From Patescibacteria group bacterium (GTDB lineage Bacteria; Patescibacteriota; Minisyncoccia; Minisyncoccales; Staskawiczbacteraceae), in the NCBI GenBank assembly GCA_038065715.1, contig JBBTQL010000004.1, positions 35,693 to 99,692 on the forward strand: a stretch of 64,000 nucleotides of DNA, given 5' to 3'. The position numbers and the translations under genes are program-made. Below the pieces are notes generated by a model that saw only the letters and a program-made list of their open reading frames with translations, was not told where the DNA came from and did not search any database. Shown in pieces: positions 368 to 63,685 of the stretch (its first letter is position 1; every line of letters starts with the position of its first letter).

Positions 368-2497
368 TTATCTTCCGGCAGCCAGCCAATTATTAATTCC
401 TTGTTGCCAATAATTATATTGCGCGTCTGTGTTTGGATTTTGTGGAGGAGGGCCCAAAGGATCATCTTTATTTATATAATATAAAATAGTGTTAGTGTCA
501 TTAGAATTTAACTGGCCCAATAAAACAGGGCTTTTATTTATTATATTGTCTGGCGGATTAAAATTTTCAACAGCATGATTTTTAATTATTTTTTCTATAA
601 CTTTTCTCCATATTGGAGCCGCTAATCCAACGCCAACATCTTTTGTTGGAGAATTATCGCTGTTTCCAACCCACACCCCCACAACCGTGAAGGGAGAATA
701 TCCCATTGTCCAGCCGTCTTTTAAATTTGATGTCGTTCCTGTTTTAGCCGCAACCTGATAGTCTGGAAAATAAAGAGCGGAATTTGCGCCGAAAACAGGC
801 GCCCTTAAATTATTGTCTGATAAAATATTATTTATTTGCCTTGCGGTCTGCGTGTCTAAAACCTTAGTAGATTGTTTGTTTTTTTGTTCAATAATATTGC
901 CGCCGCTGTCTTCTATTTTTAATATACTAGACGGAGAGGTCAGTAAACCTTCTGTCGCAAAAACACCATAAGCAGAGGTTAATTCTAATAAATTTACTTC
1001 TCCTCCGCCCAACACCAAGGATAAGCCATAACGATCCGGATTATTTAAAGTTGTCATTCCAAAATCTTGCGCTGTTTTTAAAGCGTCTTTAAGCCCCGAC
1101 AAATATAATAATTTTACCGATGGAAGGTTTAAAGATTGCGCTAAAGATTGCCTTATAGTAACCTTTCCTCTATAAGCGCCGTCATAATTTTGAGGATGAT
1201 AACATTCTAACCCATACATGTCTTTTTGCTGGCCTCCGTTAGGGCTGCAATTAGGGTTAAATTCAGTTTTTGCGTCCCATAACACTGTATCTGGGGTAAA
1301 ACCTTTTTTAAGCGCTGTAGCATAAACAAATGGCTTAAACGATGATCCTGGCTGTCTTTGCCCCATAGTTGCCACATCATATTTTGGATCAAATAAACAA
1401 CTTCCTGCGGGCTTTTCATCACATCCTGAAGGATAGGGTTTTTCAAAATAATTTTTTGATCCAATTAGCGCTAAAATTTCGCCGGTTTTTGGGTCAAGAA
1501 CCACCACGGCTGCATTATTCGCCCCGCGGCTTTTATTTGTTTTTTCTGCGTCTTTTAAAATTTTCTCTGCATATTGCTGAATATCCCAGTCTATCGTTGT
1601 ATAAACCCTTAATCCTTTTTCCTTTAAAAAATCTTCGCCGTATTTTTTATTTAAATATTTTTGTACATACATTACAAAATGCGGAGCTTTTATATTTGTT
1701 CTGTCTTCTGAAAAAACTATTTTTTCTGCCTTTGATTTTTCCATTTGGTCTTTTGTTATATACCCCGCTTTCTGTACTTTTTCTAAAACATAATCTTTTC
1801 TTTTTAAAAGTTCGTTTTTATTAGAACCGTATGGAGAAAGATAACTTGGAGCCGGAAGCAGCGCCGTTAAAGTTGCGGCCTCTGCCACAGAAATATCAGA
1901 CGCCGGCTTATTAAAATATGTTTGGCTGGCAGACTCAACCCCATAAGTATTTTGTCCGAAAGGAACTGCGTTTAAATACCAATTAAAAATTTGGTCTTTT
2001 GAATATTTTCTTTCTAATTCTATGCTTAAAACAATTTCCCTGACTTTTCTTGATATGCTTTTTTGGCCAGTTAAATAAACAGACCTTATTAGTTGCTGGG
2101 TTATTGTAGATCCGCCCTGGCTGGCAGATTGCAGTTTTAAGTCAATTAGTATGGCTCTGAATATTCCTTCAAAATCTATTCCGCCATGCTGGTAAAACCT
2201 TGCATCCTCTGAAGCTAAAACGGCATGTTTTAAATTATCTGAGATTTTATCAAACGCAACAATTTCCCTTTTTTCTTCGCCATAAATATCATATAAAAGA
2301 ACCTTTCCTGTCCTGTCATAAATTTTAGTGGATTGTATAAATGGAGTTTCAGTGAATTTTTCGGGCTGGGGCAGATTATAAGTGTAATAAAAAAACAGCA
2401 ATAAAATAAAACCTAAGAAAGCCAAAAACAAATAAGACAGGTATTCCCCTATCTTAATTACTATTTTTAATCTTTTATCTTTAATATTTTTAAACAT
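368..2497 (-). CDS. class A penicillin-binding protein (glycosyltransferase GT51 + transpeptidase)
   Basis: 709 aa ORF; N-terminal TM helix; GT51 motifs EDARFYQHGGID and QGGSTITQQL; transpeptidase SSFKPF (SxxK) and KTGT. Confidence 0.85.
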   Translation of the reverse strand: MFKNIKDKRLKIVIKIGEYLSYLFLAFLGFILLLFFYYTYNLPQPEKFTETPFIQSTKIYDRTGKVLLYDIYGEEKREIVAFDKISDNLKHAVLASEDARFYQHGGIDFEGIFRAILIDLKLQSASQGGSTITQQLIRSVYLTGQKSISRKVREIVLSIELERKYSKDQIFNWYLNAVPFGQNTYGVESASQTYFNKPASDISVAEAATLTALLPAPSYLSPYGSNKNELLKRKDYVLEKVQKAGYITKDQMEKSKAEKIVFSEDRTNIKAPHFVMYVQKYLNKKYGEDFLKEKGLRVYTTIDWDIQQYAEKILKDAEKTNKSRGANNAAVVVLDPKTGEILALIGSKNYFEKPYPSGCDEKPAGSCLFDPKYDVATMGQRQPGSSFKPFVYATALKKGFTPDTVLWDAKTEFNPNCSPNGGQQKDMYGLECYHPQNYDGAYRGKVTIRQSLAQSLNLPSVKLLYLSGLKDALKTAQDFGMTTLNNPDRYGLSLVLGGGEVNLLELTSAYGVFATEGLLTSPSSILKIEDSGGNIIEQKNKQSTKVLDTQTARQINNILSDNNLRAPVFGANSALYFPDYQVAAKTGTTSNLKDGWTMGYSPFTVVGVWVGNSDNSPTKDVGVGLAAPIWRKVIEKIIKNHAVENFNPPDNIINKSPVLLGQLNSNDTNTILYYINKDDPLGPPPQNPNTDAQYNYWQQGINNWLAAGR

Positions 2498-2556
2498 ATA
2501 TTTTTGAATATAATTTAAGAATATAATACCACAAAACCCCTATTTTTACAAAAAAC

Positions 2557-2590
2557 AAAAACTCCGCTTAAATTCCACGGAGTTTTTGTT
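2557..2590. terminator. bidirectional intrinsic terminator hairpin
   Basis: AAAAACTCCG-loop-CGGAGTTTTT perfect 10-bp stem flanked by A/T runs on both sides, between two minus-strand genes. Confidence 0.6.
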
Positions 2591-2602
2591 TTGTTGTTGT
2601 TA

Positions 2603-2788
2603 TTATTCTTCTTCCTCTACCATTGTATCATCATCGTCGTCAACCACTTCTTCGGCTTTTTCATCGTCGCCGTCATCATCCCAATTATCTTCATCAAAGT
2701 CATCTTCTTGATTTATAAGCCTATTTAAAAATTCTTCTTCCATTTTTTTTATTTTTTTAATTCTATTGTCCTTATTATATTTTTTCAT
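2603..2788 (-). CDS. small acidic protein (D/E-rich tail), function unknown
   Basis: 61 aa ORF followed by the terminator; very acidic C-terminus; no recognisable family. Confidence 0.4.
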   Translation of the reverse strand: MKKYNKDNRIKKIKKMEEEFLNRLINQEDDFDEDNWDDDGDDEKAEEVVDDDDDTMVEEEE

Positions 2789-2833
2789 AAACTATTGTCA
2801 ACCCCGTTAAAAGCCTACTCTGTGGAAAACTTT

Positions 2834-3331
2834 TTAAGTCCAATAATTTTTTAACGAAGCGCAAATAGCCAGCCCCAAAGCATCAAAAGCATCGTCCTTT
2901 TTTCTATTGTTTTTTTTAAAATCAAACCCGTTTAAATCCAATGTTTTTTTTAGCATCTCTTGCATTTGTTTTTTTTCTGCCCTGCCATACCCAGTGATAG
3001 CCATTTTCACTTGCAAAGGAGTAAATTCTACAACTGGCAATTTTTTTTCTTCAGCCGCAAGCAGTATTACTCCCTTTGTTTGGCTTACGGGAATTGCTGT
3101 TTTTAAATTTTTAAAGAAAAATAAATTTTCAACAGCCATTATTTCAGGTTTATGCTTTGCAATCAGTTTTTCTGTTTCTTTGTATATTTTTTTTAATCTT
3201 TCTCCAGTGGTTGCAAACTGCTCTGTTATTATGCATCCAAAATCAATAACCTCAACGCGGCAGTCTTTATGCTTTTTGATAATAGAATAGCCAACCACCA
3301 CAGACCCCGGATCTATGCCTAAGATTATCAT
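2834..3331 (-). CDS. ruvC: crossover junction endodeoxyribonuclease RuvC
   Basis: MIILGIDPGSVVVGYSII N-terminus typical of RuvC; 165 aa. Confidence 0.9.
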   Translation of the reverse strand: MIILGIDPGSVVVGYSIIKKHKDCRVEVIDFGCIITEQFATTGERLKKIYKETEKLIAKHKPEIMAVENLFFFKNLKTAIPVSQTKGVILLAAEEKKLPVVEFTPLQVKMAITGYGRAEKKQMQEMLKKTLDLNGFDFKKNNRKKDDAFDALGLAICASLKNYWT

Positions 3332-5070: not shown

Positions 5071-6084
5071 TTAAATTAATGGACTTTGATTGTTCTTTGG
5101 TTTAAGCCCAAAATGTTCATAGGCAAGTTTTGAGGCGACTCTGCCCTTTGGAGTTCTTTCAATAAAACCGCATTGCATCAAATAGGGTTCGTAAATATCT
5201 AAAATAGAATCTTCTTCTTCCATGGCAGCAGCCGACAAAGATTGAAGCCCCACTGGACCGCCGTTAAATTTTTCTATCAAAGCTTTTAATATAGATCTGT
5301 CGCTGGAATCTAACCCCATTTTATCCACTTCTAAAGAATTTAGCGCATCATTTGCAATTTCTTTTGTGATAAATCCATCACTTTTAACTTCTGCAAAATC
5401 TCTAACTCTTTTAAAAAGTCGGTTGGCAACCCTTGGAGTAAAACGAGACCTCTTTGCTATAATTTTTACGGCTTCTGGCTCAATCCCCACATTTAAAATT
5501 TTTCCTGACCTTTCAATTATTTTTTCAATATCTTCATTTGAGTAAAAATTTAATTGAAAAGTCGCGCCAAAGCGATTTCTTAAGGGCGAGGACAAAAGCC
5601 CGGGCCTTGTTGTGGCTCCAATCATTGTAAAATGAGGCAACTTTAATTCCATTGTTCTTGCCATAGGTCCTTTGCCTAAAATTAAATTAAGCTTGTACTC
5701 TTCCATGGCAGGATATAAATATTCTTCAACCGTTTTATTTATTCTATGTATTTCATCTAAAAACAAAACATCGCCTTCTGATAAATTAGTTAGAATTGCC
5801 GCCAAATCTCCGGCTCTTTCTACGGCAGGGCCCGAAGTCACCCTAATGGACTTGCCCATTTCATTGGCAACTAAATATGCCAGCGTGGTTTTTCCTAATC
5901 CAGAGTTCCCATAAAATAATAAATGGTCAGGCGACTGGCTTCTTTTTTTTGCCGCTGTTATTATTATCCTGATATTTTCTTTGATTTTTTCCTGGCCCAC
6001 ATACTCTTGCCAGTTTTTTGGTCGCAAAGCAGAATCCAGCGCGTTATCGTCATTGTTTATTTTTTCTGGTAAAACTCTTGACAT
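5071..6084 (-). CDS. ruvB: Holliday junction branch migration helicase RuvB
   Basis: 337 aa; Walker A GNSGLGKTTLA, DEIHRINKTVEE (Walker B), typical RuvB length and C-terminal winged helix. Confidence 0.95.
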   Translation of the reverse strand: MSRVLPEKINNDDNALDSALRPKNWQEYVGQEKIKENIRIIITAAKKRSQSPDHLLFYGNSGLGKTTLAYLVANEMGKSIRVTSGPAVERAGDLAAILTNLSEGDVLFLDEIHRINKTVEEYLYPAMEEYKLNLILGKGPMARTMELKLPHFTMIGATTRPGLLSSPLRNRFGATFQLNFYSNEDIEKIIERSGKILNVGIEPEAVKIIAKRSRFTPRVANRLFKRVRDFAEVKSDGFITKEIANDALNSLEVDKMGLDSSDRSILKALIEKFNGGPVGLQSLSAAAMEEEDSILDIYEPYLMQCGFIERTPKGRVASKLAYEHFGLKPKNNQSPLI

Positions 6085-6169
6085 AAGCTTTATAAGGTGA
6101 TATAATTAAATTTATTGACGCCTACAATTTATTATAACAAATTTGTTCGTATTATTTATAGGTTTTGCT

Positions 6170-6304
6170 AAAACAGCTCTGGAGTTGGAGGTTTTATATG
6201 GGTTTGTCTCAGTTTCCGGGTAATCTTGCTCCGGCTCGATTATTCCTCAGACAAACTTTTACTTATGTCCCAGACATAAAGACACCTCCAACTCCAGAGC
6301 TGTT
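6170..6304. repeat. perfect 23-bp inverted repeat enclosing nested stems (structured element, ncRNA or MITE-like)
   Basis: AAAACAGCTCTGGAGTTGGAGGT at 6170-6192 is exact reverse complement of 6282-6304; inner GTTTGTCT/AGACAAAC stem; local GC above background. Confidence 0.5.
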
Positions 6305-6344
6305 TTCCCCCGTTTCTAGTTCTTTGTTTTTAGGAGAAACGCCA

Positions 6345-6521
6345 TGAGAAAAATATGTATTATCGGGCATTCCATTTCCTGGGTGGCAGTTGTTCTATAT
6401 ATACTTGCTTGCACTTTTGCACCAGAGTTGGCCGGAAAGCACAACTGGGCAGCAATACTGTCTTTCGCCGCTCTTGGGATGTTCTCTTTTCTCCACTTCT
6501 CAGTTGTTGATGCTAAATAAA
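6345..6521 (+). CDS. small hydrophobic protein (58 aa), hypothetical
   Basis: AGGAG RBS 6-8 nt upstream of ATG 6345; two predicted TM segments; below 60 aa ORF-track cutoff; GC ~45%. Confidence 0.3.
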
Positions 6522-22788: not shown

Positions 22789-24039
22789 ATGAGGATAAAA
22801 GAAGCAGTTAAAAAAATATTAGGCAGAAATTTGTTGGGTTTTTATCATTATGGCATGGCTTTTTTGGGAGCTGTGATTTTTGGTTTTCCATCTAAAAATT
22901 TAACTGTTATAGGGGTTACAGGCACCAGCGGTAAATCAACTACTTCTGATTTTATCACAAGAATTTTAGAAGAACCCTTCGACGGGGCCCAGGGCAGGTC
23001 TGGCAATAAGGTGGCTTCAATTTCAACAATAAGATTTAAAATTGCAGAAAAAGAATGGGAAAATAAATATAAAATGACAATGCCCGGCCGTTTTGTTATT
23101 CAAAAGTTTTTAAGGCAGGCAAAAAAAGCAGGATGCAAATTTGTGGTTTTAGAAGTTACTTCGCAAGGCATTGAACAATATCGCCATAAATTTATAAATT
23201 TTGATACAGCTGTTTTTACTAATTTGTCGCCAGAGCATATTGAAAGCCATGGCAGTTTTGAAAATTACAGAAACGCAAAACTAAAACTATTTCGAGCAAC
23301 AAAAAACATCCATATTATAAATACTGATGACGCAAATTCAAAATATTTTTGGAATATTCCGGCAAAACAAAAAATTGGATTTTCAGCCAAAGATGCGCAA
23401 AACGCTAATTTAAAATTAAATTTAATTGGAGACTTTAATATTTTAAACGCCTTAGCGGCAATTTCTGCGGCAAAGGCATATGGCATTGATTTTAGCATTT
23501 GTAAAAGGGCGCTGGAAAAGGCCAAAGGAATTTCTGGCAGAATGGAAGTGATTCAAAAAGAGCCATTCAAAGTTATTGTTGACTATGCTCATACTCCAGA
23601 ACAACTCGAAAGTGTCTATAAGGCACTTTCTCAAAACCCAAAACCTCAAACTCCAAACCCCAAACTTATTTGTGTGCTTGGAAGTTGCGGCGGGGGAAGG
23701 GATAAATGGAAAAGGACTGTTTTAGGAGAAATTGCAAATAAATATTGCGACAAAATATTTATAACCAATGAAGATCCATATGATGAAAACCCCAACCAGA
23801 TTTTATCTGAAATAAAATCTGGAATTATCAATTCTCAATTTCCAATTTCCAATTTATATGAAATTTTAGACCGTAAAGAGGCAATTAAAACTGCAATAAA
23901 ATTAGCAAAATCAGATGATATTGTTATAATCACTGGCAAGGGTTCAGAATCCTGGATGTGCATAGCAAACGGTAAAAAAATCCCCTGGGACGACAGGCAA
24001 ATCGCTAAAGATGCGTTGGGGCTCCAAACCTTGACATAG
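22789..24039 (+). CDS. Mur ligase family protein (MurE/MurF-like UDP-N-acetylmuramoyl peptide ligase)
   Basis: P-loop GVTGTSGKSTT; Mur ligase middle and C-terminal domains; in-frame inserts at 22977-22994 (GC hairpin) and 23828-23855 (heptamer repeat). Confidence 0.75.
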   Translation: MRIKEAVKKILGRNLLGFYHYGMAFLGAVIFGFPSKNLTVIGVTGTSGKSTTSDFITRILEEPFDGAQGRSGNKVASISTIRFKIAEKEWENKYKMTMPGRFVIQKFLRQAKKAGCKFVVLEVTSQGIEQYRHKFINFDTAVFTNLSPEHIESHGSFENYRNAKLKLFRATKNIHIINTDDANSKYFWNIPAKQKIGFSAKDAQNANLKLNLIGDFNILNALAAISAAKAYGIDFSICKRALEKAKGISGRMEVIQKEPFKVIVDYAHTPEQLESVYKALSQNPKPQTPNPKLICVLGSCGGGRDKWKRTVLGEIANKYCDKIFITNEDPYDENPNQILSEIKSGIINSQFPISNLYEILDRKEAIKTAIKLAKSDDIVIITGKGSESWMCIANGKKIPWDDRQIAKDALGLQTLT

Positions 24040-24218
24040 ATGCTTTAATATGATATGATTAATAATATAGCTCTTTTTTATTGTTACTTGCGAAATTGGC
24101 AGTTATAGCCAAAAGCTACTGAATTATATCGGTATCTTCTGGCTATGACTGCTATGTCGGTACGTCAAGCAGAAACCAGCCTGTCATAATTGGCGGGCAA
24201 AACAGAAAGGAGATTGTC

Positions 24219-24878
24219 ATGGCTGTGCAAGTCATTGGCGATCTATATGTGGAGTTGGATGGGAAGTTGGCGGAGATTAAGCGGCAAATGAGGCAGCAGG
24301 GAGGCTATCCGTTTGACCCGGAGAAATTAAACAAGTTTCTCCAACTAGCTGTCGAGGGCAGGTTCAACGACAACCGGTGCTGGTGCGAGAAGGAAGGAGT
24401 GATCTACTTTGAGGTCACCTCTGACGGCACGACTGGACCCCAATGGATTGAGCGTCTGGAGAAGAAGGGTATCCAGCTCTCCAAGTGGGCCAAGGACGTC
24501 CTGCTGTCTCCGGACTTCAAGCCGACCAACGGCGTGACCACCGAGATCGCTGTCCTCAAGGGCGCGCTTTTTATGGACAATGATCGCATCACGTCTAAGA
24601 TCCGCGCTGAGGCCGACAAGCGCAAGCTCGTCAAGCCCGAAGCCGAACTCGGTTGCCTTATCCGCGACACGTTCACGGACGAGGAAATCGAAGCCATGGG
24701 TCTTGTGTGGATCGTGGCGTTCCACGAGCCCATCAAGGACTCTGACGGCGATCCGACGTTGCTCGGTGCGCGTCGCCTTGGCGATGGCCGTTGGCTGCGC
24801 GCGTGCTGCGGCCTGCCCGACCGCAGGTGGCTTCGCGACCGTGGCTTTGCCTTCGCCGTCTCGCAAGTATCTTCGTAA
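24219..24878 (+). CDS. DGR target protein (variable C-terminus, probable C-type lectin-like fold)
   Basis: 219 aa; ~60% GC in 33% GC genome; AAAGGAG RBS; C-terminal ...GARRLGDGRWLRACCGLPDRRWLRDRGFAFAVSQVSS encoded by VR. Confidence 0.7.
   Translation: MAVQVIGDLYVELDGKLAEIKRQMRQQGGYPFDPEKLNKFLQLAVEGRFNDNRCWCEKEGVIYFEVTSDGTTGPQWIERLEKKGIQLSKWAKDVLLSPDFKPTNGVTTEIAVLKGALFMDNDRITSKIRAEADKRKLVKPEAELGCLIRDTFTDEEIEAMGLVWIVAFHEPIKDSDGDPTLLGARRLGDGRWLRACCGLPDRRWLRDRGFAFAVSQVSS
24741..24866 (+). other. DGR variable region VR1
   Basis: 126 nt aligning 1:1 with TR1 25208-25333; 22 of 23 mismatches fall at TR adenines. Confidence 0.8.
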
Positions 24879-25207
24879 GTCCTTTGGGCTTGAGCCTTTG
24901 CTCTAGCCCTTGGATCCTCTGCCCTTTGCATTTCCTCACGGACTTGCACTGGGCAGATTTTTTTTGCTAAAATATAAATGGTAATAGGTGAATCTTGCGG
25001 GAGATCAAGGTTTCCCGCGGCCGAATCCAGTATTCGTATGCTGAGAGCGTTTGCGATTAAGGTTGCAAACGGAGGGCATACGAATTACTTTCAAAAAAGA
25101 AGATACTTGGCGTGGGAAACTAGGGCATTACGATGCCGAATTCGATACAGCCCTGTGATCGTAAAACTACTTCAAGGGGCAGTGGCATAGATGGTTTCTT
25201 GCGTATT

Positions 25208-25333
25208 TCTGACGGCGATCCGAACTTGCTCAGTGCGAATCGCAATGACGATGGCCATTGGCTGAACGCGTACTACGACAAGCCCGACAACAGGTGGAAT
25301 CGCGACAATGGCTTTGCCTTCGCCGTCTCGCAA
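25208..25333 (+). other. DGR template repeat TR1 (non-coding)
   Basis: Adenine-rich (AAC-rich) near-copy of VR1; followed by diverged IMH-like end; preceded by conserved CAAGGGGCAGTGGCATAGATGG element shared with DGR-2. Confidence 0.8.
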
Positions 25334-25339
25334 CTCTCT

Positions 25340-25699
25340 TCATTTCTCTCCTTGCTTAGGAGAGTTTTGTTTAATAATTTGTCCCGACCAACCACCGAGC
25401 ATTTTGCCAATTTCATCTAGTTTCAATGATAGAGCAATATATTTTTTGTTATCCAATGATTTTGTTTCCCAAAGAATCATTAAAAATATTTTTAACGTAT
25501 CGACCTTTCTAATTGCTAAACGTACATAGGACAATTTTTCTGATTGCCCAAGAAAACTTGCAGTCACTATTGCCTCTATTGCTTCAACAAAAAGTTTATC
25601 AATTTTTTCACCAAGAGAATATTTATGTATTTTTGGTATAATTAAATAGTGTTGGTACCAAAAAAGATAAGCTTCTTTCAACTTTTGCAAAACAGGCAA
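25340..25699 (-). CDS. Avd-like accessory variability determinant (four-helix-bundle family)
   Basis: ~120 aa from TTG 25699; paralog of 63274-63642; C-terminal ...KLDEIGKMLGGW motif; antisense to TR and RT. Confidence 0.55.
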   Translation of the reverse strand: MPVLQKLKEAYLFWYQHYLIIPKIHKYSLGEKIDKLFVEAIEAIVTASFLGQSEKLSYVRLAIRKVDTLKIFLMILWETKSLDNKKYIALSLKLDEIGKMLGGWSGQIIKQNSPKQGEK

Positions 25700-25739
25700 C
25701 AGTCTGGGGGGGGGGATTAAAAGCTGAGTTATTTTGATT

Positions 25740-26726
25740 ATGAAAATTACTTTGCAACATAAATACGAAGACATCATAAGCGTTGAGAATATTTTGGAAG
25801 CATGGCAAGAGTTTCTTCTCGGCAAAAGAAACAAGCCCGATGTTCAAGAATTTTCTCTCTGTCTGATGAATAATGTTTTTAATTTGCACAACGACTTATC
25901 CAATCATACCTACAAACACGGAGGCTATCAACAATTTAAAATTAACGACCCAAAGCCAAGAACAATCCACAAAGCCAGCGTAAAAGACAGATTATTGCAC
26001 CACGCAGTATATCGTATATTATACCCGTTTTTTGATAAAAAGTTTATTGCAGACTCTTTCTCTTGCAGAAACAACAAAGGCACTCATAAAGCATTAAACA
26101 AATTCAGGGAGTTCAGCTATATTGTTTCCAAAAACAACACAAACACCTGCTGGATTTTAAAATGCGACATAAAAAAGTTTTTTGCCAGCGTTGATCAGCA
26201 GATACTAATTAAAATTTTAGAAAAATATATTTCAGAAAAAGATATTATCAACTTTCTAAAAGAAATAATTTTTGGTTTTAAACCCAATGGTTTGCCTCTC
26301 GGTAATTTGACTTCCCAGTTGTTCGCAAATGTTTATCTGAATGAATTTGACCAGTTTGTAAAACACAAATTGAAAGTAAAATACTATATTAGGTATGCCG
26401 ATGACTTCGTAATTTTATCAGAGAACAAAAATTATTTAAAAAACATAATTCCAGAGCTAAAATATTATTTAAAAAACAATTTAAAACTGGAAATTCATCC
26501 AAATAAAATTTTTATTAAAACATTGAATTCTGGCGTTGATTTTTTAGGCTGGATTAATTTTACAGATCATAGAGTTTTAAGGACAAAAACTAAAAACAGA
26601 ATATTAAAGAGAATAAAAAATAATTCAAGTATTGAAACATTAAATTCTTATTCGGGTTTGTTAAAACATGGAAATATGAACAAAATGATTAAGAAATTAT
26701 TTAAGGAAACGGAGATTGCTTTTTAA
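25740..26726 (+). CDS. DGR reverse transcriptase
   Basis: RT motifs incl. YADD and DGR-diagnostic LGNLTSQLFANVYL (IGxxxSQ); ~328 aa. Confidence 0.85.
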   Translation: MKITLQHKYEDIISVENILEAWQEFLLGKRNKPDVQEFSLCLMNNVFNLHNDLSNHTYKHGGYQQFKINDPKPRTIHKASVKDRLLHHAVYRILYPFFDKKFIADSFSCRNNKGTHKALNKFREFSYIVSKNNTNTCWILKCDIKKFFASVDQQILIKILEKYISEKDIINFLKEIIFGFKPNGLPLGNLTSQLFANVYLNEFDQFVKHKLKVKYYIRYADDFVILSENKNYLKNIIPELKYYLKNNLKLEIHPNKIFIKTLNSGVDFLGWINFTDHRVLRTKTKNRILKRIKNNSSIETLNSYSGLLKHGNMNKMIKKLFKETEIAF

Positions 26727-38045: not shown

Positions 38046-38403
38046 ATTATTTTAGTGGAAGCGCCGGGGTCGAACCCGGGTCCAGAAATTTTTTAAAAAT
38101 AAATCTACAAATTTATCTTGCTTTGTTGTTTGGATATTAAATAAGAAGCAAGAAAAATGTTTAATATCCTAATTCTCGTAAATCTCGACAGTTCCCCGAG
38201 AAATAAAACTGCCTATCCTGAAAATATAACACCCTCGGTCCATTTATCAGGAGTCAATGGCGAGGATGCAGCATTAAGCTAAAGCTAGTGCTGGTTGCCT
38301 ATTAAATAAATTAGCAATTATGTTTTTTCTATAAGTTTAACCAGGTTATAGAAAACTGGATTTGCATATTTTTAATGAAACATCTGTCAAAACTTACGCT
38401 CCC
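38046..38403 (-). ncRNA. ssrA: tmRNA (SsrA)
   Basis: Minus-strand 5' GGGAGCG pairs with 3' CGCUUCC-A; tRNA-like T arm GGTTCGACCCC; internal tag frame GCT AAT TTA TTT AAT AGG CAA CCA GCA CTA GCT TTA GCT TAA (ANLFNRQPALALA*); starts 2 nt after smpB stop. Confidence 0.75.
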
Positions 38404-38848: not shown

Positions 38849-38892
38849 ATTTTTCTTTAAGCTTAGCAGTTGTTTTATATTACCACAACTAT

Positions 38893-38921
38893 TGACAAAT
38901 GTAAACAATGGGTGTATAATT
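38893..38921 (+). promoter_or_regulatory. consensus sigma70 promoter TTGACA-17-TATAAT
   Basis: Perfect hexamers and spacing; points into hairpin cluster and the 39153 gene. Confidence 0.4.
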
Positions 38922-38949
38922 AATATAATATGATCTGTTGATTTATTTC

Positions 38950-39085
38950 TCTGCCGTCCCCGGTCAGATTCGTCTGATCGAGGGCTTTTTTATTGTTTTT
39001 TTGTCCGTGTGCGGCTTTTTCACTCGAGTGAAAAAGCCGCACCTTTTGAAAATTAGAAACCCGCTTCGCCCGCGAAGCGAGGCGA
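38950..39085. repeat. cluster of GC-rich hairpins incl. perfect 34-nt palindrome
   Basis: TCAGA-TTCG-TCTGA then GAGGGCTTTTTT; GTGCGGCTTTTTCACTC|GAGTGAAAAAGCCGCAC (39009-39042); CGCTTCGCCCGCGAAGCG (39062-39079). Confidence 0.55.
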
Positions 39086-39152
39086 GTTGAAAATTGAAAA
39101 TTAGCCCATGAGCCCTTTAAATTTTAGCTAAAATAAGGTAGACTAAGAAATA

Positions 39153-59467: not shown

Positions 59468-62014
59468 ATGAATATGGCAAAATATAATCCTCAAAAAATT
59501 GAGAAGAAATGGCAAGAGGCTTGGTATAAATCAAGCATTTTTAAAGCTAAAAACGGGTCTAAAAATAAGAAATTTTACCTTTTAGTGGAGTTTCCTTATC
59601 CTTCGGGAGACGGGCTTCATGTCGGCCATTGCCGAAGCTATACTGCCTTAGATATTATTGCCAGAAAAAAAAGAATGCAGGGATTTAATGTTTTATTCCC
59701 AATGGGCTGGGACGCTTTTGGATTGCCAACTGAAAATTATGCCATAAAAAAGGGAGTACACCCGTCTGTTGTGACAAAAAAGAATACAGATAACTTTAGG
59801 CGGCAGATGAAAAGTTTGGGGCTTTCTTTTGACTGGAGCCGAGAAATAAATACCACAGACCCAAAATATTATAAATGGACGCAGTGGATTTTTTTGCAGT
59901 TATTTAAAAATAACTTGGCTTATAAAGATAAAATTGCAATCAACTGGTGCCCTAAAGATAAAATTGGATTGGCAAATGAAGAAGTGATAAATGGCAAATG
60001 CGAAAGATGCGGCGCAAAAGTTGAAAAAAGAGATAAAGAGCAATGGATGATAAAAATTACAAAATATGCCGACAGATTAATTGAAGATTTAAATTTAGTT
60101 GATTATTTAGAAAAAATAAAAATACAGCAGAAAGATTGGATAGGCGAGTCACATGGAGCGTTGATAAAATTTTCGTTAGAAGGAAGCGAAGAATTCATAG
60201 AAGTTTTTACAACCAGAATAGACACAATATTTTCTGGCACGTTTTTAATTTTATCTCCAGGACACAATTTTATAGATAAATATAAAAATAAAATTGAAAA
60301 CATTGATGAAGTTTTAAAATATAGAGAAACCGCAAAAAATACTTCTGATATAGATAGAACTAATCAAGATAAAGATATTACAGGAGTGGAATTAAAAGGA
60401 ATTACAGTAAAAAATCCTGCCACAAATGAAGAAATGCCAGTTTGGACAGCTGATTTTGTTTTAGAGCAATACGGAACAGGAGTCGTTTTTGCTGATGCCC
60501 ATGATAAAAGAGATTTTAAAATGGCAAAAAAATATGGGATACCTTTGCGAACTTCAATAAAACCAGAAAATGAACTATCGGCGCAAAAAGCAAAAAATTT
60601 GGAAGAATGTTTTGAGGGCGAAGGCGCTCTTTATAATTCTATGCATTTTGACGGCTTAACTTCTTCTGAAGCCCGACCTAAAATAATTTCTTGGTTAAGG
60701 GAAAAAGGATATGCGGAAAACAAAATAAGCTATAAGCTTCGAGATTGGGTTTTTTCGCGCCAGCATTATTGGGGCGAGCCAATACCAATGATTTTTTGCG
60801 TAAAATGCGGTTGGCAGGCTGTTTTAGAAAAAAATCTGCCCGTTGAATTGCCTAAGGTAAAAAAATATCAGCCAACAGATACAGGCGAATCTCCTCTTTC
60901 TGCTATTGAAAAATGGGTAAATGTAAAATGTCCAAAATGCAAAGGACCGGCAAAAAGAGAAACAGACACAATGCCTAATTGGGCAGGTTCAAACTGGTAT
61001 TACTTGGCATATACTATGCCAAAAATTTCAAATTTCAAATTTCAAATTTCAAATTCTGCGAAAGAATTTTCGCAGTGGATGCCAGTTGACTGGTATAATG
61101 GCGGAATGGAGCACACAACTTTGCATTTATTGTATTCAAGATTTATTTTTAAATTTTTATGGGATATTGGAGCTGTTCCAAAAATAATTGGGGCAGAACC
61201 ATATAAAAAAAGAACTTCGCATGGAATGATTTTAGGCGAAGGGGGAATTAAAATGTCAAAGTCAAAGGGAAATGTAATAAATCCAGATTCAGTTGTGAAA
61301 CAATATGGAGCCGACACCTTAAGAGTTTACGAAATGTTTATCGGGCCTTTTGAGCAAATGATTCCTTGGGATATAAAGGGGGTTGTTGGTTCGCGCAGGT
61401 TTTTAGAAAAAATTTACAACTTAGTTTTGAAGAAGGCAATTCCGGCAAAAATCCCGACGGTCTCGCCGTCGAGGACCCGCGACGAAGTCGGGGCAGAAGA
61501 AAATTTTAAAAAACTTTTGCATAAAACAATAAAAAAGGTTGGTGACGATATTGAGGCAATGAAATTTAACACAGCAGTGAGCTCTTTAATGGAATTTGTA
61601 AATGCATGGAGCATTGCTGAAAATAGTTTAGATAAACCAGCCTCCGATAAAGGCTACGGCTTGGCGAAGAAAGATTTGCAAGAATTTTTAAAGATTTTGT
61701 CGCCTTTTGCCCCGCATTTGTCAGAAGAGCTTTGGCAAAGAGCTGGATTTAAAGGTTTGTGCTGCGCTCAAAAATGGCCTAAGTATGACGAAAAATTAAT
61801 TGAAGAAAAAAACATATTGCTTATTGTGCAAATTAACGGTAAAGTTAGAGATAAAATAGAAGTTAACGCAGGCATTACTCAAAAACAAGCTGAAGAAATA
61901 GTTTTAAAATTAGAAAAAATTAAAAACCGTATAACTAATATTAAAGAAGTGGAAAAAGTTGTTTTTGTGCCAGGTAAGTTAATAAATTTTGTGACTATTG
62001 ACAAGGATAAGTAA
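59468..62014 (+). CDS. leuS: leucine--tRNA ligase
   Basis: HVGHCRSY (HIGH), KMSKSKGN; 848 aa; in-frame (AAATTTC)4 array 61023-61057 and GC hairpin insert 61453-61494. Confidence 0.9.
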   Translation: MNMAKYNPQKIEKKWQEAWYKSSIFKAKNGSKNKKFYLLVEFPYPSGDGLHVGHCRSYTALDIIARKKRMQGFNVLFPMGWDAFGLPTENYAIKKGVHPSVVTKKNTDNFRRQMKSLGLSFDWSREINTTDPKYYKWTQWIFLQLFKNNLAYKDKIAINWCPKDKIGLANEEVINGKCERCGAKVEKRDKEQWMIKITKYADRLIEDLNLVDYLEKIKIQQKDWIGESHGALIKFSLEGSEEFIEVFTTRIDTIFSGTFLILSPGHNFIDKYKNKIENIDEVLKYRETAKNTSDIDRTNQDKDITGVELKGITVKNPATNEEMPVWTADFVLEQYGTGVVFADAHDKRDFKMAKKYGIPLRTSIKPENELSAQKAKNLEECFEGEGALYNSMHFDGLTSSEARPKIISWLREKGYAENKISYKLRDWVFSRQHYWGEPIPMIFCVKCGWQAVLEKNLPVELPKVKKYQPTDTGESPLSAIEKWVNVKCPKCKGPAKRETDTMPNWAGSNWYYLAYTMPKISNFKFQISNSAKEFSQWMPVDWYNGGMEHTTLHLLYSRFIFKFLWDIGAVPKIIGAEPYKKRTSHGMILGEGGIKMSKSKGNVINPDSVVKQYGADTLRVYEMFIGPFEQMIPWDIKGVVGSRRFLEKIYNLVLKKAIPAKIPTVSPSRTRDEVGAEENFKKLLHKTIKKVGDDIEAMKFNTAVSSLMEFVNAWSIAENSLDKPASDKGYGLAKKDLQEFLKILSPFAPHLSEELWQRAGFKGLCCAQKWPKYDEKLIEEKNILLIVQINGKVRDKIEVNAGITQKQAEEIVLKLEKIKNRITNIKEVEKVVFVPGKLINFVTIDKDK

Positions 62015-62201
62015 ATATGCTATGATTAATAATACAGCTCTTTTTAAGTGAAAATACTTGCAAAAACAGCGGTTATAGCCAAAAGCGACCGAAGGTCGTC
62101 CTGAGCAGAGCCGAAGGACAACAAATCGGTATTTTCTGGCTATGACTGCTATGGTAGTAGTCAAGCGAAATGGTGAAACCCTAAAGAAAGGAAAAAGCAC
62201 C

Positions 62202-62822
62202 ATGTCGTACGACAAGCAGACAGCCGAGTTCATCGCCACTGTGGTGCAGAACATCCCCAAAATGTCAGGCGATGTTATGCAGGGTTGGATTGGGAATCCA
62301 AAAGCGCTACAGAAGCTCCTCTTGGGTCTATGCCCTTCTGTCAATGAGCCCAAGGAAGTCTCGTTGCTCCGCAAGCTCGCCAGCGTTCAGGTGGAGGGCG
62401 TTGCAAGATTCGTCGTTGACGACGATACCCTGCAGGCGGCCAACATCGGCTGGACTGGCGACAACTTCAAAAAGTTTTTCGCCAAGAAGGTTGAGGAGGA
62501 TGTTCCCGCCTGCGCTATCGCTGTTCACCGGCTGGAACGCGCGTCTTCGGATGCGCCCATTCTCACCGAACTCGGTGACCGCGCCGAAATCAGCCTCGCG
62601 CACCTGTTCGAGCTGATCAAAAAGCAGTCCAAGGGCGAAACTGGCCAGTTGTTGGTTAATGGTTATGCGAATGTCGCATATGTCCGTGGAACCGATGGCA
62701 ACCTCTGGGCTGTGCTTGCGGCCTGGCGCTCTTACTGCGGTTGCTGGGGTGTCGAGGCTGACTCGGTTGAGGATCCGGACGGGTGGCGCGGTAGCCGCCG
62801 GATTCTCTCCCGCGATTCTTGA
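62202..62822 (+). CDS. DGR target protein 2 (variable C-terminus)
   Basis: ~206 aa from ATG 62202 after AAAGGAAAAAG RBS (the 62142 start lies in conserved leader); ~58% GC; C-terminal ...LWAVLAAWRSYCGCWGVEADSVEDPDGWRGSRRILSRDS in VR. Confidence 0.7.
   Translation: MSYDKQTAEFIATVVQNIPKMSGDVMQGWIGNPKALQKLLLGLCPSVNEPKEVSLLRKLASVQVEGVARFVVDDDTLQAANIGWTGDNFKKFFAKKVEEDVPACAIAVHRLERASSDAPILTELGDRAEISLAHLFELIKKQSKGETGQLLVNGYANVAYVRGTDGNLWAVLAAWRSYCGCWGVEADSVEDPDGWRGSRRILSRDS
62704..62813 (+). other. DGR variable region VR2
   Basis: 110 nt aligning with TR2; 21 mismatches, all at TR adenines. Confidence 0.8.
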
Positions 62823-63164: not shown

Positions 63165-63274
63165 TCTGGGCTGTGAATGCGAACTGGAACTCTAACTACG
63201 GTTACTGGAATGTCGAGGCTAACTCGGTTGAGAATCCGAACAGGTGGAACGATAGCAACCAGATTCTCTCCCGC
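63165..63274 (+). other. DGR template repeat TR2 (non-coding)
   Basis: A-rich near-copy of VR2; upstream CAAAGGGCAGTGGCATTGATGG element conserved with DGR-1. Confidence 0.8.
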
Positions 63275-63642
63275 TACTGTTTTCTTTCTTCCGCTTTTAT
63301 CGCGGAAGTTTTGCTTATTATTCCTTTTTTCCAGCCACCGATTATCTTACCAATGCCTTCTATCTCAGCGCCAAGCGAGATATATTGTTTATTAGAAACG
63401 AGTTTTGTTTCCCATAAAAGCTGAAAGAAAAAACGCAACGAATCAATTTTGTCCGATGTCGCTTCAAGCAAAACAAGTTTTTTATTTATTGGCGTATACG
63501 TAGCTTTTCTTAATAACTCAAGAAGATCTAAAAATAAAATATCTACTTTAGTCCCGATTCCGAACCGCGCGATTCGTTCAATATTGCGATGCACTTCCAT
63601 CCACTGTTTATATATCAATTTGGATTTTTGCAAAACTGGCAA
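63274..63642 (-). CDS. Avd-like accessory variability determinant
   Basis: 122 aa; TTG start; paralog of 25340-25699; ...EIEGIGKIIGGW motif. Confidence 0.6.
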   Translation of the reverse strand: MPVLQKSKLIYKQWMEVHRNIERIARFGIGTKVDILFLDLLELLRKATYTPINKKLVLLEATSDKIDSLRFFFQLLWETKLVSNKQYISLGAEIEGIGKIIGGWKKGIISKTSAIKAEERKQ

Positions 63643-63685
63643 CAGTCTGGGGGGGATTAGAAGAATAACTATTTATATTTTGATT

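Follow-up and report, generated by a model that had tools for sequence, protein, structure and literature searches.

A covarying leader hairpin upstream of DGR target genes in Patescibacteria is a candidate control element

The two DGR target genes present in the window (the whole stretch of DNA that was analysed, 64,000 nucleotides in length) are preceded by a shared segment that contains a long hairpin, hairpin A. This hairpin recurs with compensatory changes before DGR targets of many related bacteria and, judged from sequence, is a real candidate control element. It is also a real, previously undescribed leader RNA motif within the known class of structured 5'-UTR elements, with a function that we infer. 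Our main reading, to which we give a probability of roughly 0.4, is that the shared segment comprises the promoter of the DGR target mRNAs and their structured 5' untranslated leader, the hairpin being a putative site of double-stranded RNA processing or stability of the RNase III type.

To our knowledge, almost nothing is known about the expression of DGR target genes; gene regulation in the Patescibacteria (CPR), organisms that do not grow in culture on their own, is entirely unexplored. A covarying leader hairpin common to non-homologous diversified genes, both within a genome and across lineages, provides a concrete, testable cis element for the co-regulation of hypervariable proteins. It is also useful as an annotation marker for DGR-type targets, including orphan and remote ones. 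If it were an RNase III or stability element only, hairpin A would be a solid but ordinary new RNA motif.

DGR cassettes and target genes

The window comes from a low-GC (about 33%) genome of the Patescibacteria (CPR) and contains two DGR cassettes, with the following genes and repeats:

24219–24878, plus strand: DGR-1 target ORF (219 aa, 58% GC), with its VR at 24741–24874.
25208–25341, plus strand: TR-1.
Within 25340–25834, minus strand: Avd-like gene of cassette 1.
25734–26726, plus strand: RT-1.
62202–62822, plus strand: DGR-2 target ORF (206 aa, 57% GC), with its VR at 62704–62820.
63165–63281: TR-2.
From about 63680: RT of cassette 2, which runs off the window.

In the first VR/TR pair, 21 of the 24 mismatches are located at TR adenines; in the second pair, all 21 are. 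For the DGR-1 target, 1647 homologues were retrieved, and a protein of a Patescibacteria MAG matches it at 100% identity. The proteins encoded by target 1 and target 2 give a BLASTP E-value of 5 when compared to each other, so the initial annotation was right to describe the downstream coding sequences as unrelated. The target proteins are mosaic: the amino-terminal 43 residues of window target 2 are common to the target of locus L106, and its carboxy-terminal 155 residues to the target of locus L030 (52% identical). The target ORFs of the window and the downstream ORFs of loci L001–L030 have a GC content of 49–61%, versus 33–47% for the genomes or loci that contain them. The RT gene, unlike the GC-rich target ORFs, shares the AT-rich composition of the genome. 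Directly after each TR, a terminator-like hairpin with a U-tract is found on the plus strand (25346–25364 and 63288–63308), and immediately upstream of the RT start a conserved block contains a run of about nine G near 25707 in cassette 1 and of seven G near 63647 in cassette 2. Because the Avd-like gene lies between TR and RT on the opposite strand, an RNA extending from TR to RT would be antisense to avd.

Promoter and leader

The segments 24031–24218 and 61998–62201 are about 80% identical, with a sliding identity of 75–83% across the leader that falls to 25–50% within the coding regions. The sequence common to both extends from the -35 hexamer (24031 and 61998) to about 24170 and 62167, respectively. 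A shared leader is thus present, as had been annotated, but its true start is 10 nt earlier than claimed, at the -35 hexamer. Reading the sequence directly, all four of the conserved blocks quoted previously are found in both copies. The elements of the shared segment are:

24031–24059, plus strand: predicted DGR-1 promoter, with -35 TTGACA at 24031–24036, a 17-nt spacer and TG-extended -10 TATGAT at 24054–24059 (promoter score 11/12).
61998–62026, plus strand: predicted DGR-2 promoter, TTGACA-17-TATGAT, TG-extended (11/12 in the promoter scan).
24054–24078 and 62021–62045: block TATGATTAATAATAYAGCTCTTTTT.
24067–24079, plus strand: 5' box AUAGCUCUUUUUU of copy 1, CU-rich and anti-Shine-Dalgarno-like, at the predicted 5' end of the transcript.
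62034–62045, plus strand: 5' box ACAGCUCUUUUU of copy 2, aligned to that of copy 1.
24098–24153, plus strand: hairpin A, copy 1, with about 24 bp, a single A.C mismatch and a loop of 6 nt.
62068–62150, plus strand: hairpin A, copy 2, with the same basal and middle helix and an apical GC-rich hairpin inserted at about 62093–62122.
24103–24115 and 62073–62085: block TTATAGCCAAAAG.
24129–24156 and 62126–62153: block TCGGTATYTTCTGGCTATGACTGCTATG.
24154–24170, plus strand: 3' tail of the hairpin, consensus CUAUGGUGGCAGUCAAGC, which includes GTCAAGC and is at least 70% conserved in alignment A3.
24164–24170 and 62161–62167: block GTCAAGC.
24179–24212, plus strand: target-1-family leader module, with a small hairpin GCCUGUCAUAAUUGGCGGGC (24179–24198) and the Shine-Dalgarno (SD) sequence AGAAAGGAG (24204–24212).
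62185–62193, plus strand: SD sequence AGAAAGGAA of copy 2.

Both copies carry a predicted promoter of the sigma-70 type, as defined by a -35 TTGACA, a -10 TATAAT and a spacer of 16–18 nt. Each begins right behind the stop codon of an upstream housekeeping gene, which encodes a Mur ligase in one cassette and LeuRS in the other. The same promoter architecture, scoring at least 9/12 and mostly 10–12/12, is found in 28 of 30 homologous leaders, for which 5' UTRs of 116–209 nt are predicted. The first of the quoted blocks corresponds to the TG-extended -10 element together with the beginning of the predicted transcript, which agrees with the earlier suggestion of a promoter module. Transcription is predicted to start about 7 nt past the promoter, so that the transcript would open with a CU-rich box, AUAGCUCUUUUU, conserved among the leaders as AG-Y-N-C-N-UUU.

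The 5' box of copy 1 is predicted to pair with the SD sequence AGAAAGGAG, both in the minimum free energy structure and in the ensemble (pairing mass 0.69). Such pairing is predicted in 11 of 28 leaders (copy 1 and ten others, pairing mass 0.5–0.96), and neither for copy 2 nor for leaders bearing the AGCACAUUUACA variant of the box; it is weakened as evidence by the fact that any CU-rich tract pairs with an SD sequence in silico. In the window, the box pattern ATAGYTCTTTT is not over-represented, with 15 matches where 9.8 are expected.

Hairpin A starts 33–36 nt past the predicted transcription start in the window copies. Across the leaders, the hairpin is preceded by 22–78 nt that are predicted to be single-stranded. 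A variable, gene-family-specific segment with the SD sequence comes 37–92 nt past the hairpin, and the distance from the hairpin to the start codon is 65 nt in copy 1 and 51 nt in copy 2. No supported pairing partner was found for the 3' tail. The target-1-family leader module, which folds at -13.4 kcal/mol, is near-identical in L001 and L003, two loci with target-1 homologues. An upstream ORF or leader peptide was considered and rejected: the 3' arm contains AUGACUGCUAUG without an SD sequence and the peptide diverges after four residues. The ATG of the 3' arm opens an ORF that is 14 residues long in copy 1 and fused in frame in copy 2 and L001; in other members AUG is replaced by GUG or ACG, hence there is no conserved start codon.

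Structure and covariation of hairpin A

The stem ATAGCCA/TGGCTAT that was initially annotated exists, but as the core of a longer helix, with about 24 bp rather than 7 bp; the additional GC-rich hairpin described in the loop of the second copy is present. Copy 1 folds at -31.9 kcal/mol (z = -8.9) and copy 2 at -38.2 kcal/mol (z = -5.8), with covariance-model scores of 82.9 and 81.8 bits, respectively.

In a MAFFT alignment of 18 sequences, 95.8% of the cells are paired and seven pairs show double changes, a result that chiefly tests the distal half of the helix, the search pattern having fixed the 3' arm. A larger MAFFT alignment, of 31 hairpins and made without fitting to the structure, has 91.9% of its cells paired, while partners slid by one to three columns are paired in only 34–48%. 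Eighteen of the 24 pairs have changed on both sides (111 cells), and the covariation score is 0.517, versus 0.219 in shuffles. When RNAalifold is applied to longer leaders, hairpin A is the sole structure predicted, with 22 pairs of which 12 are compensatory. The recurrence of the motif in unrelated contigs, with covariation, excludes chance.

The 31 sequences also discriminate between the strands. In the sense orientation 91.9% of the cells are paired versus 84.1% in the antisense orientation, G.U outnumbers A.C by 92 to 34, and 26 of the 31 sequences fold better on the sense strand. Folds of the sense strand are also the more stable. This asymmetry points to an RNA transcribed in the coding orientation and not to a DNA cruciform or an antisense RNA. 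The proposal of a structured RNA element is thus upheld: covariance analysis of homologous loci reveals a sense-strand element with strong covariation, and the blocks and the stem are conserved in other DGR-bearing relatives.

The apical loop contains insertions of 30–130 nt in copy 2 and in loci L001, L011/L030, L020 and L069. Since the loop accepts insertions, selection appears to act on a helix of at least 20 bp and not on the loop. The basal helix is more conserved in sequence than a purely structural role would demand, with invariant C-G and G-C pairs and a conserved G.U. Among the 31 hairpins, C25-G87 is present in 31, G18-C94 in 30, the G.U of columns 31-81 in 25 and the A.C in 20. The conserved A.C mismatch belongs to subfamily A1, while subfamily A2 is defined by UUUGCCAUAGCAGAAAG ... 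CUUUCUGCUAUGGCAAA and the L048 type has its basal stem fully exchanged. The leader of L001 contains the compensatory change GUCACAGCC/GGCUGUGAC.

Two further pairings were discarded. An outer helix ACUUGC/GUCAAGC around the hairpin is plausible by eye and is not predicted by RNAalifold. An alternative hairpin, formed by UGACUGC of the 3' arm and a downstream GCAGUCA, pairs in 76.6% of the cells and its covariation is not above that of shuffles, its 5' partner being nearly invariant.

Occurrence in other genomes

An exact-pattern DNA scan with 19 nt of the 3' arm against JGI metagenome contigs yielded 21 loci, made up of 17 true leaders and four chance matches. The true leaders all have the same layout, with a promoter, a 5' box (AGUUCUUU or AGCACAUUUACA), hairpin A and then diverse GC-rich ORFs. 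Several of these ORFs are verified DGR targets for which the TR was found. Several others are homologues of verified targets: the ORF at L022 is 65% identical to the target at L035, and L030, with a homologue of window target 2, likewise carries hairpin A. Homologues of target 1 in other metagenomes have the same leader, even without a nearby RT, and loci L001, L003, L016, L022, L026 and L029 carry the hairpin without a TR or RT downstream. The ORF downstream at L010 and L029 is an unconfirmed target: 14.6 kb of sequence contain no TR, and BLASTP shows no resemblance to target 1. At L012 and L018, a 77-residue membrane ORF follows hairpin A, and at L017 no ORF does.

An RT-anchored scan of GTDB species genomes, with RT-1 as the query, gave 80 loci, nearly all labelled with Patescibacteria-type lineages, among them Staskawicz-, Yanofsky-, Niyogi-, Azam-, Morani- and Kaiserbacteria. 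With a covariance model derived from the 18-sequence alignment, more divergent members were found among these loci, all of them 1.5–1.8 kb upstream of the RT and just 5' of the target ORF. Counting the 50 loci in which the VR/TR pair was located and enough upstream sequence was available, 15 Patescibacteria DGR targets (30%) have hairpin A. The hairpin is about 90% conserved in nucleotide sequence between loci whose RT proteins are 57–74% identical.

A second covariance model, R2, was searched against about 890 kb, made up of the window together with the full sets of metagenome and RT-anchored loci. It matches leaders only, including a new member at L069 and exactly two copies in the window, and nothing elsewhere in the 890 kb, the chance pattern matches included. 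All its matches are directly 5' of an ORF of the DGR-target type, save for three contigs with a small or absent ORF. In viral contigs, three pattern matches were found, none of which was confirmed by the covariance model.

The earlier description of the module as specific to DGR targets is therefore too strong. Hairpin A precedes a minority of the RT-anchored targets, other DGR targets bear different structured leaders, many carriers have no RT nearby and two contigs have the hairpin before the membrane ORF mentioned above.

The two window copies share the private variants GTTATAGCCAAAAGC and AGCTCTTTTT. In L003 (6.7 kb), two tandem leaders at 1640–3000 precede two different target-type ORFs of 290 and 219 residues; the leaders are 100% identical over more than 150 nt, a stretch that reaches beyond the promoter on its 5' side. 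The sole RT similarity in this locus is a partial match of 94 residues at 6–287 (50% identity, E = 2e-26).

Other leader classes and similar loci

Unrelated long hairpins take the position of hairpin A at L005, L080 and L101. The remaining targets that lack hairpin A have class B or class C modules or no obvious structure. The class B leader, GGCAAGCCUGGGG-[hairpin]-GUGAGGGGnnAGCC, is about 50 nt long and ends 10–25 nt before the target start codon. It is found at L033, L038, L043, L045, L059, L079, L084, L086, L088 and L105; RNAalifold predicts 14 pairs for it, eight of them with compensatory changes, and there is no Rfam match. The class C module, GCCCCAUAACCUCGGGnAGAGG, is present at L037, L049 and L097 and also 3' of hairpin A at L022, L025, L026 and L035. 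Modules are combined at L088 too, where hairpin A precedes class B. Carriage by 30% of the targets, together with modules that can be replaced and combined, indicates that hairpin A is optional and portable and not required for DGR function. The median helix length, as a count of base pairs in the minimum free energy structure, is 21 bp for DGR-target leaders and 19 bp for other intergenic regions of the same loci, which this measure does not tell apart: AU-rich spacers form long weak stems, and several leaders were clipped by the ORF-based definition of spacers.

Several further elements were observed in the window. The region 6078–6520 (plus strand) is a third locus of the same design, with a non-DGR gene. 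It consists, in this order, of a TTGACA-17-TATAAT promoter, a perfect 23-bp helix (6170–6192 with 6285–6307) with a branched insert of about 92 nt (-79 kcal/mol, z = -6.9), a UAGUUCUUU box, an SD sequence and a hydrophobic ORF of 57 residues (6346–6519), comparable to those at L012 and L018. At 38892–39110 (plus strand), a strong promoter of the same type precedes two terminator-like hairpins and no ORF; this region adjoins the tmRNA gene (38053–38403, minus strand) and may encode a small RNA. Small GC-rich palindromes, which look like REP/MITE-type elements, are dispersed in the AT-rich genome (8229–8270, 21287–21328 and 41150–41191), and similar ones (for example GTCATTCCCGCGAAAGCGGGAAT) are present in apical loops of hairpin A, at 62093–62122 and in L001, L011/L030, L069 and L082.

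Proposed function and alternatives

Transcription of the leader, cleavage or binding of its helix, pairing of the 5' box with the SD sequence and an effect on expression are what we infer, as follows. The leader would be transcribed from the near-consensus sigma-70 promoter, the predicted RNA starting with the CU-rich 5' box. The hairpin would work in cis on the target mRNA, most likely as a double-stranded RNA element of the RNase III type that determines processing or stability. A cut in the helix would detach the message from the anti-SD-like 5' box, or make a new 5' end, and its outcome would set the half-life and the translation of the mRNA. Bacterial RNase III recognises a near-perfect helix of at least 20 bp, about two turns, of which the apex is dispensable. 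Hairpin A has the length of such a substrate (at least 20 bp of near-continuous double-stranded RNA), with 24 pairs and 92–96% of cells paired among 18–31 homologues.

The main rival to this RNase III-type model, rather unlikely in our judgement, is that the hairpin is an operator for a sequence-specific factor acting in trans, such as an RNA-binding protein or a small RNA, that co-regulates all DGR-diversified genes of a genome as a regulon. Its recognition features would be the conserved base pairs, a G.U and an A.C. The sequence conservation of the basal helix could reflect a sequence-specific binding factor instead of pure structure, and several lineages of the Patescibacteria show high sequence conservation of the basal and middle helix. 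The discrete subfamilies A1, A2 and L048 resemble co-evolving specificity variants, and the same element is found on non-homologous genes within a genome, as in the two window copies and the tandem pair of L003. However, no candidate factor has been identified, hairpin A can be replaced by the unrelated hairpins of L005, L080 and L101, and the conservation may mean that the promoter-leader module has recently spread or undergone gene conversion, as the shared private variants and the identical copies of L003 would allow. A broader and speculative proposal, which we hold to be improbable, is that hairpin A and the other structured leader classes form a dedicated control layer for diversified proteins: an RNA tag, read by a DGR-associated or regulon-specific factor, that would couple the expression of all targets, remote ones among them, to the retroelement or to a signal from a host or partner, or that might even label transcribed targets for the homing of cDNA.

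That the hairpin is a functionless passenger, a palindrome of the MITE or REP kind in a portable promoter-leader cassette kept alike by duplication, gene conversion or horizontal transfer, also seems improbable to us. Copies within a genome are indeed more alike than orthologous copies, as evident from GTTATAGCCAAAAGC, AGCTCTTTTT and the L003 tandem; the target genes are mosaics in which amino-terminal and carboxy-terminal modules recombine, and small GC-rich palindromes do enter the loop. Neutral decay, however, would not yield covariation in 18 of 24 pairs, with wobble-preserving changes that favour one strand. Conservation of the hairpin at about 90%, though the RT proteins are only 57–74% identical, also argues against a passenger, as does its distribution: with two copies in the window and none off-context in about 890 kb, it is not dispersed like the Correia, ERIC and REP palindromes, and its context 5' of a target-type ORF is uniform.

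Two further explanations are very unlikely. Hairpin A could be a processive antitermination RNA like the put RNAs of phage HK022, allowing RNA polymerase to read through the structures behind VR and TR into the downstream DGR genes, since it is located immediately past a strong promoter and terminator-like hairpins are found on the same strand behind the TR in both cassettes. Many carriers, however, have no TR or RT downstream, and put RNAs are two-stem structures with specific bulges, while hairpin A is a single long helix. The other is an element acting at the level of DNA, a cruciform or single-stranded hairpin for recombination in the manner of attC, or a mark on genes for homing of DGR cDNA. 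The palindrome is tied to genes of the DGR-target type, including remote targets without a nearby RT, and it recurs in consecutive intergenic regions of L003. Against this, the G.U/A.C asymmetry points to a sense-strand RNA, the hairpin is absent from 70% of related DGR targets, and it is located at least 500 nt 5' of the VR, while the known determinants of homing are 3' of the VR (PMC5758913). An integron attC site was rejected specifically: the stem base GCAGUCA ... UGACUGC lacks the R''/R' core sites (RYYYAAC ... GTTRRRY), and the strand test favours folding of the top (sense) strand, not of the bottom strand. An array of promoterless cassettes beside an integrase does not fit either, each copy having its own promoter and the neighbours that were checked being housekeeping or DGR genes.

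A riboswitch, or another ligand- or temperature-sensing element, is suggested by the conserved structured 5' UTR beside the SD sequence and its possible anti-SD, and is hardly credible for a consensus fold that is a single, almost fully paired hairpin, with its conserved columns paired, no junction or conserved unpaired pocket, no Rfam riboswitch match and, for a thermometer, too high a stability at -32 to -38 kcal/mol.

Comparison with known elements

When the whole window was compared to Rfam 15 at the gathering threshold, only the tmRNA was found; the region 23900–25800 gave nothing on the leader at E-values up to 10, and twelve related loci gave tRNAs only. The literature that was searched contains no description of hairpin A. 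An intrinsic terminator or attenuator was rejected, as neither leader contains a plus-strand terminator and the stem is followed by UAUGKNGG, without a U-tract.

The RT-1 to RT-19 motifs (Weinberg et al. 2017, PMC5737381) are, like hairpin A, structured RNA candidates from comparative genomics at retroelement loci. They adjoin RT genes, RT-10 of the Bordetella phage DGR being located between TR and RT (PMC5737381), whereas hairpin A is 5' of the target gene, is also found without a nearby RT and matches no Rfam model. The IMH and its GC-rich inverted repeat are found 3' of the VR and act at the DNA level in cDNA homing; the same large DGR survey makes no mention of a promoter, UTR or hairpin upstream of targets (PMC5758913). 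Hairpin A, too, is an inverted repeat that forms part of a DGR target gene; it is placed at the other end of the gene and, to judge from the evidence above, is a sense-strand RNA in the 5' UTR. It is therefore distinct from the known DGR cis elements, being neither 3' of the VR nor between TR and RT, and being also present at loci without TR or RT.

The stem-loops that stabilise the ompA, ermC and aprE leaders are located a few nucleotides from the 5' end. Hairpin A resembles them as a stable leader hairpin that could protect the message; however, it is preceded by the 22–78 nt of predicted single strand and thus lies too far from the very 5' end to count as a classical 5'-terminal stabiliser. 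The Correia (CREE) and ERIC palindromes, of which hundreds of copies are dispersed in many contexts, are transcribed as part of 5' UTRs, in which RNase III cleaves them. They share with hairpin A a long modular hairpin in mRNA leaders, placed like an insertion between conserved leader parts, and can change mRNA stability. Hairpin A differs from them in its two copies in 64 kb, the lack of off-context copies in the 890 kb searched and the selection for pairing on one strand.

Hairpins in 5' UTRs that are processed by RNase III are known from the phage lambda N leader, the T7 R sites and the adhE, rnc and pnp leaders of E. coli. Hairpin A is unrelated to these in sequence, its tie to DGR targets of the Patescibacteria is new, and its cleavage is a prediction. 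It has in common with them a near-continuous helix of at least 20 bp in the 5' UTR, just past a strong promoter, with occasional mismatches or wobbles and a dispensable apex, and its processing could free the ribosome-binding site or alter access to it. By analogy, such RNase III-processed leader hairpins and co-transcribed palindromes such as the Correia repeats appear to be its closest functional counterparts.
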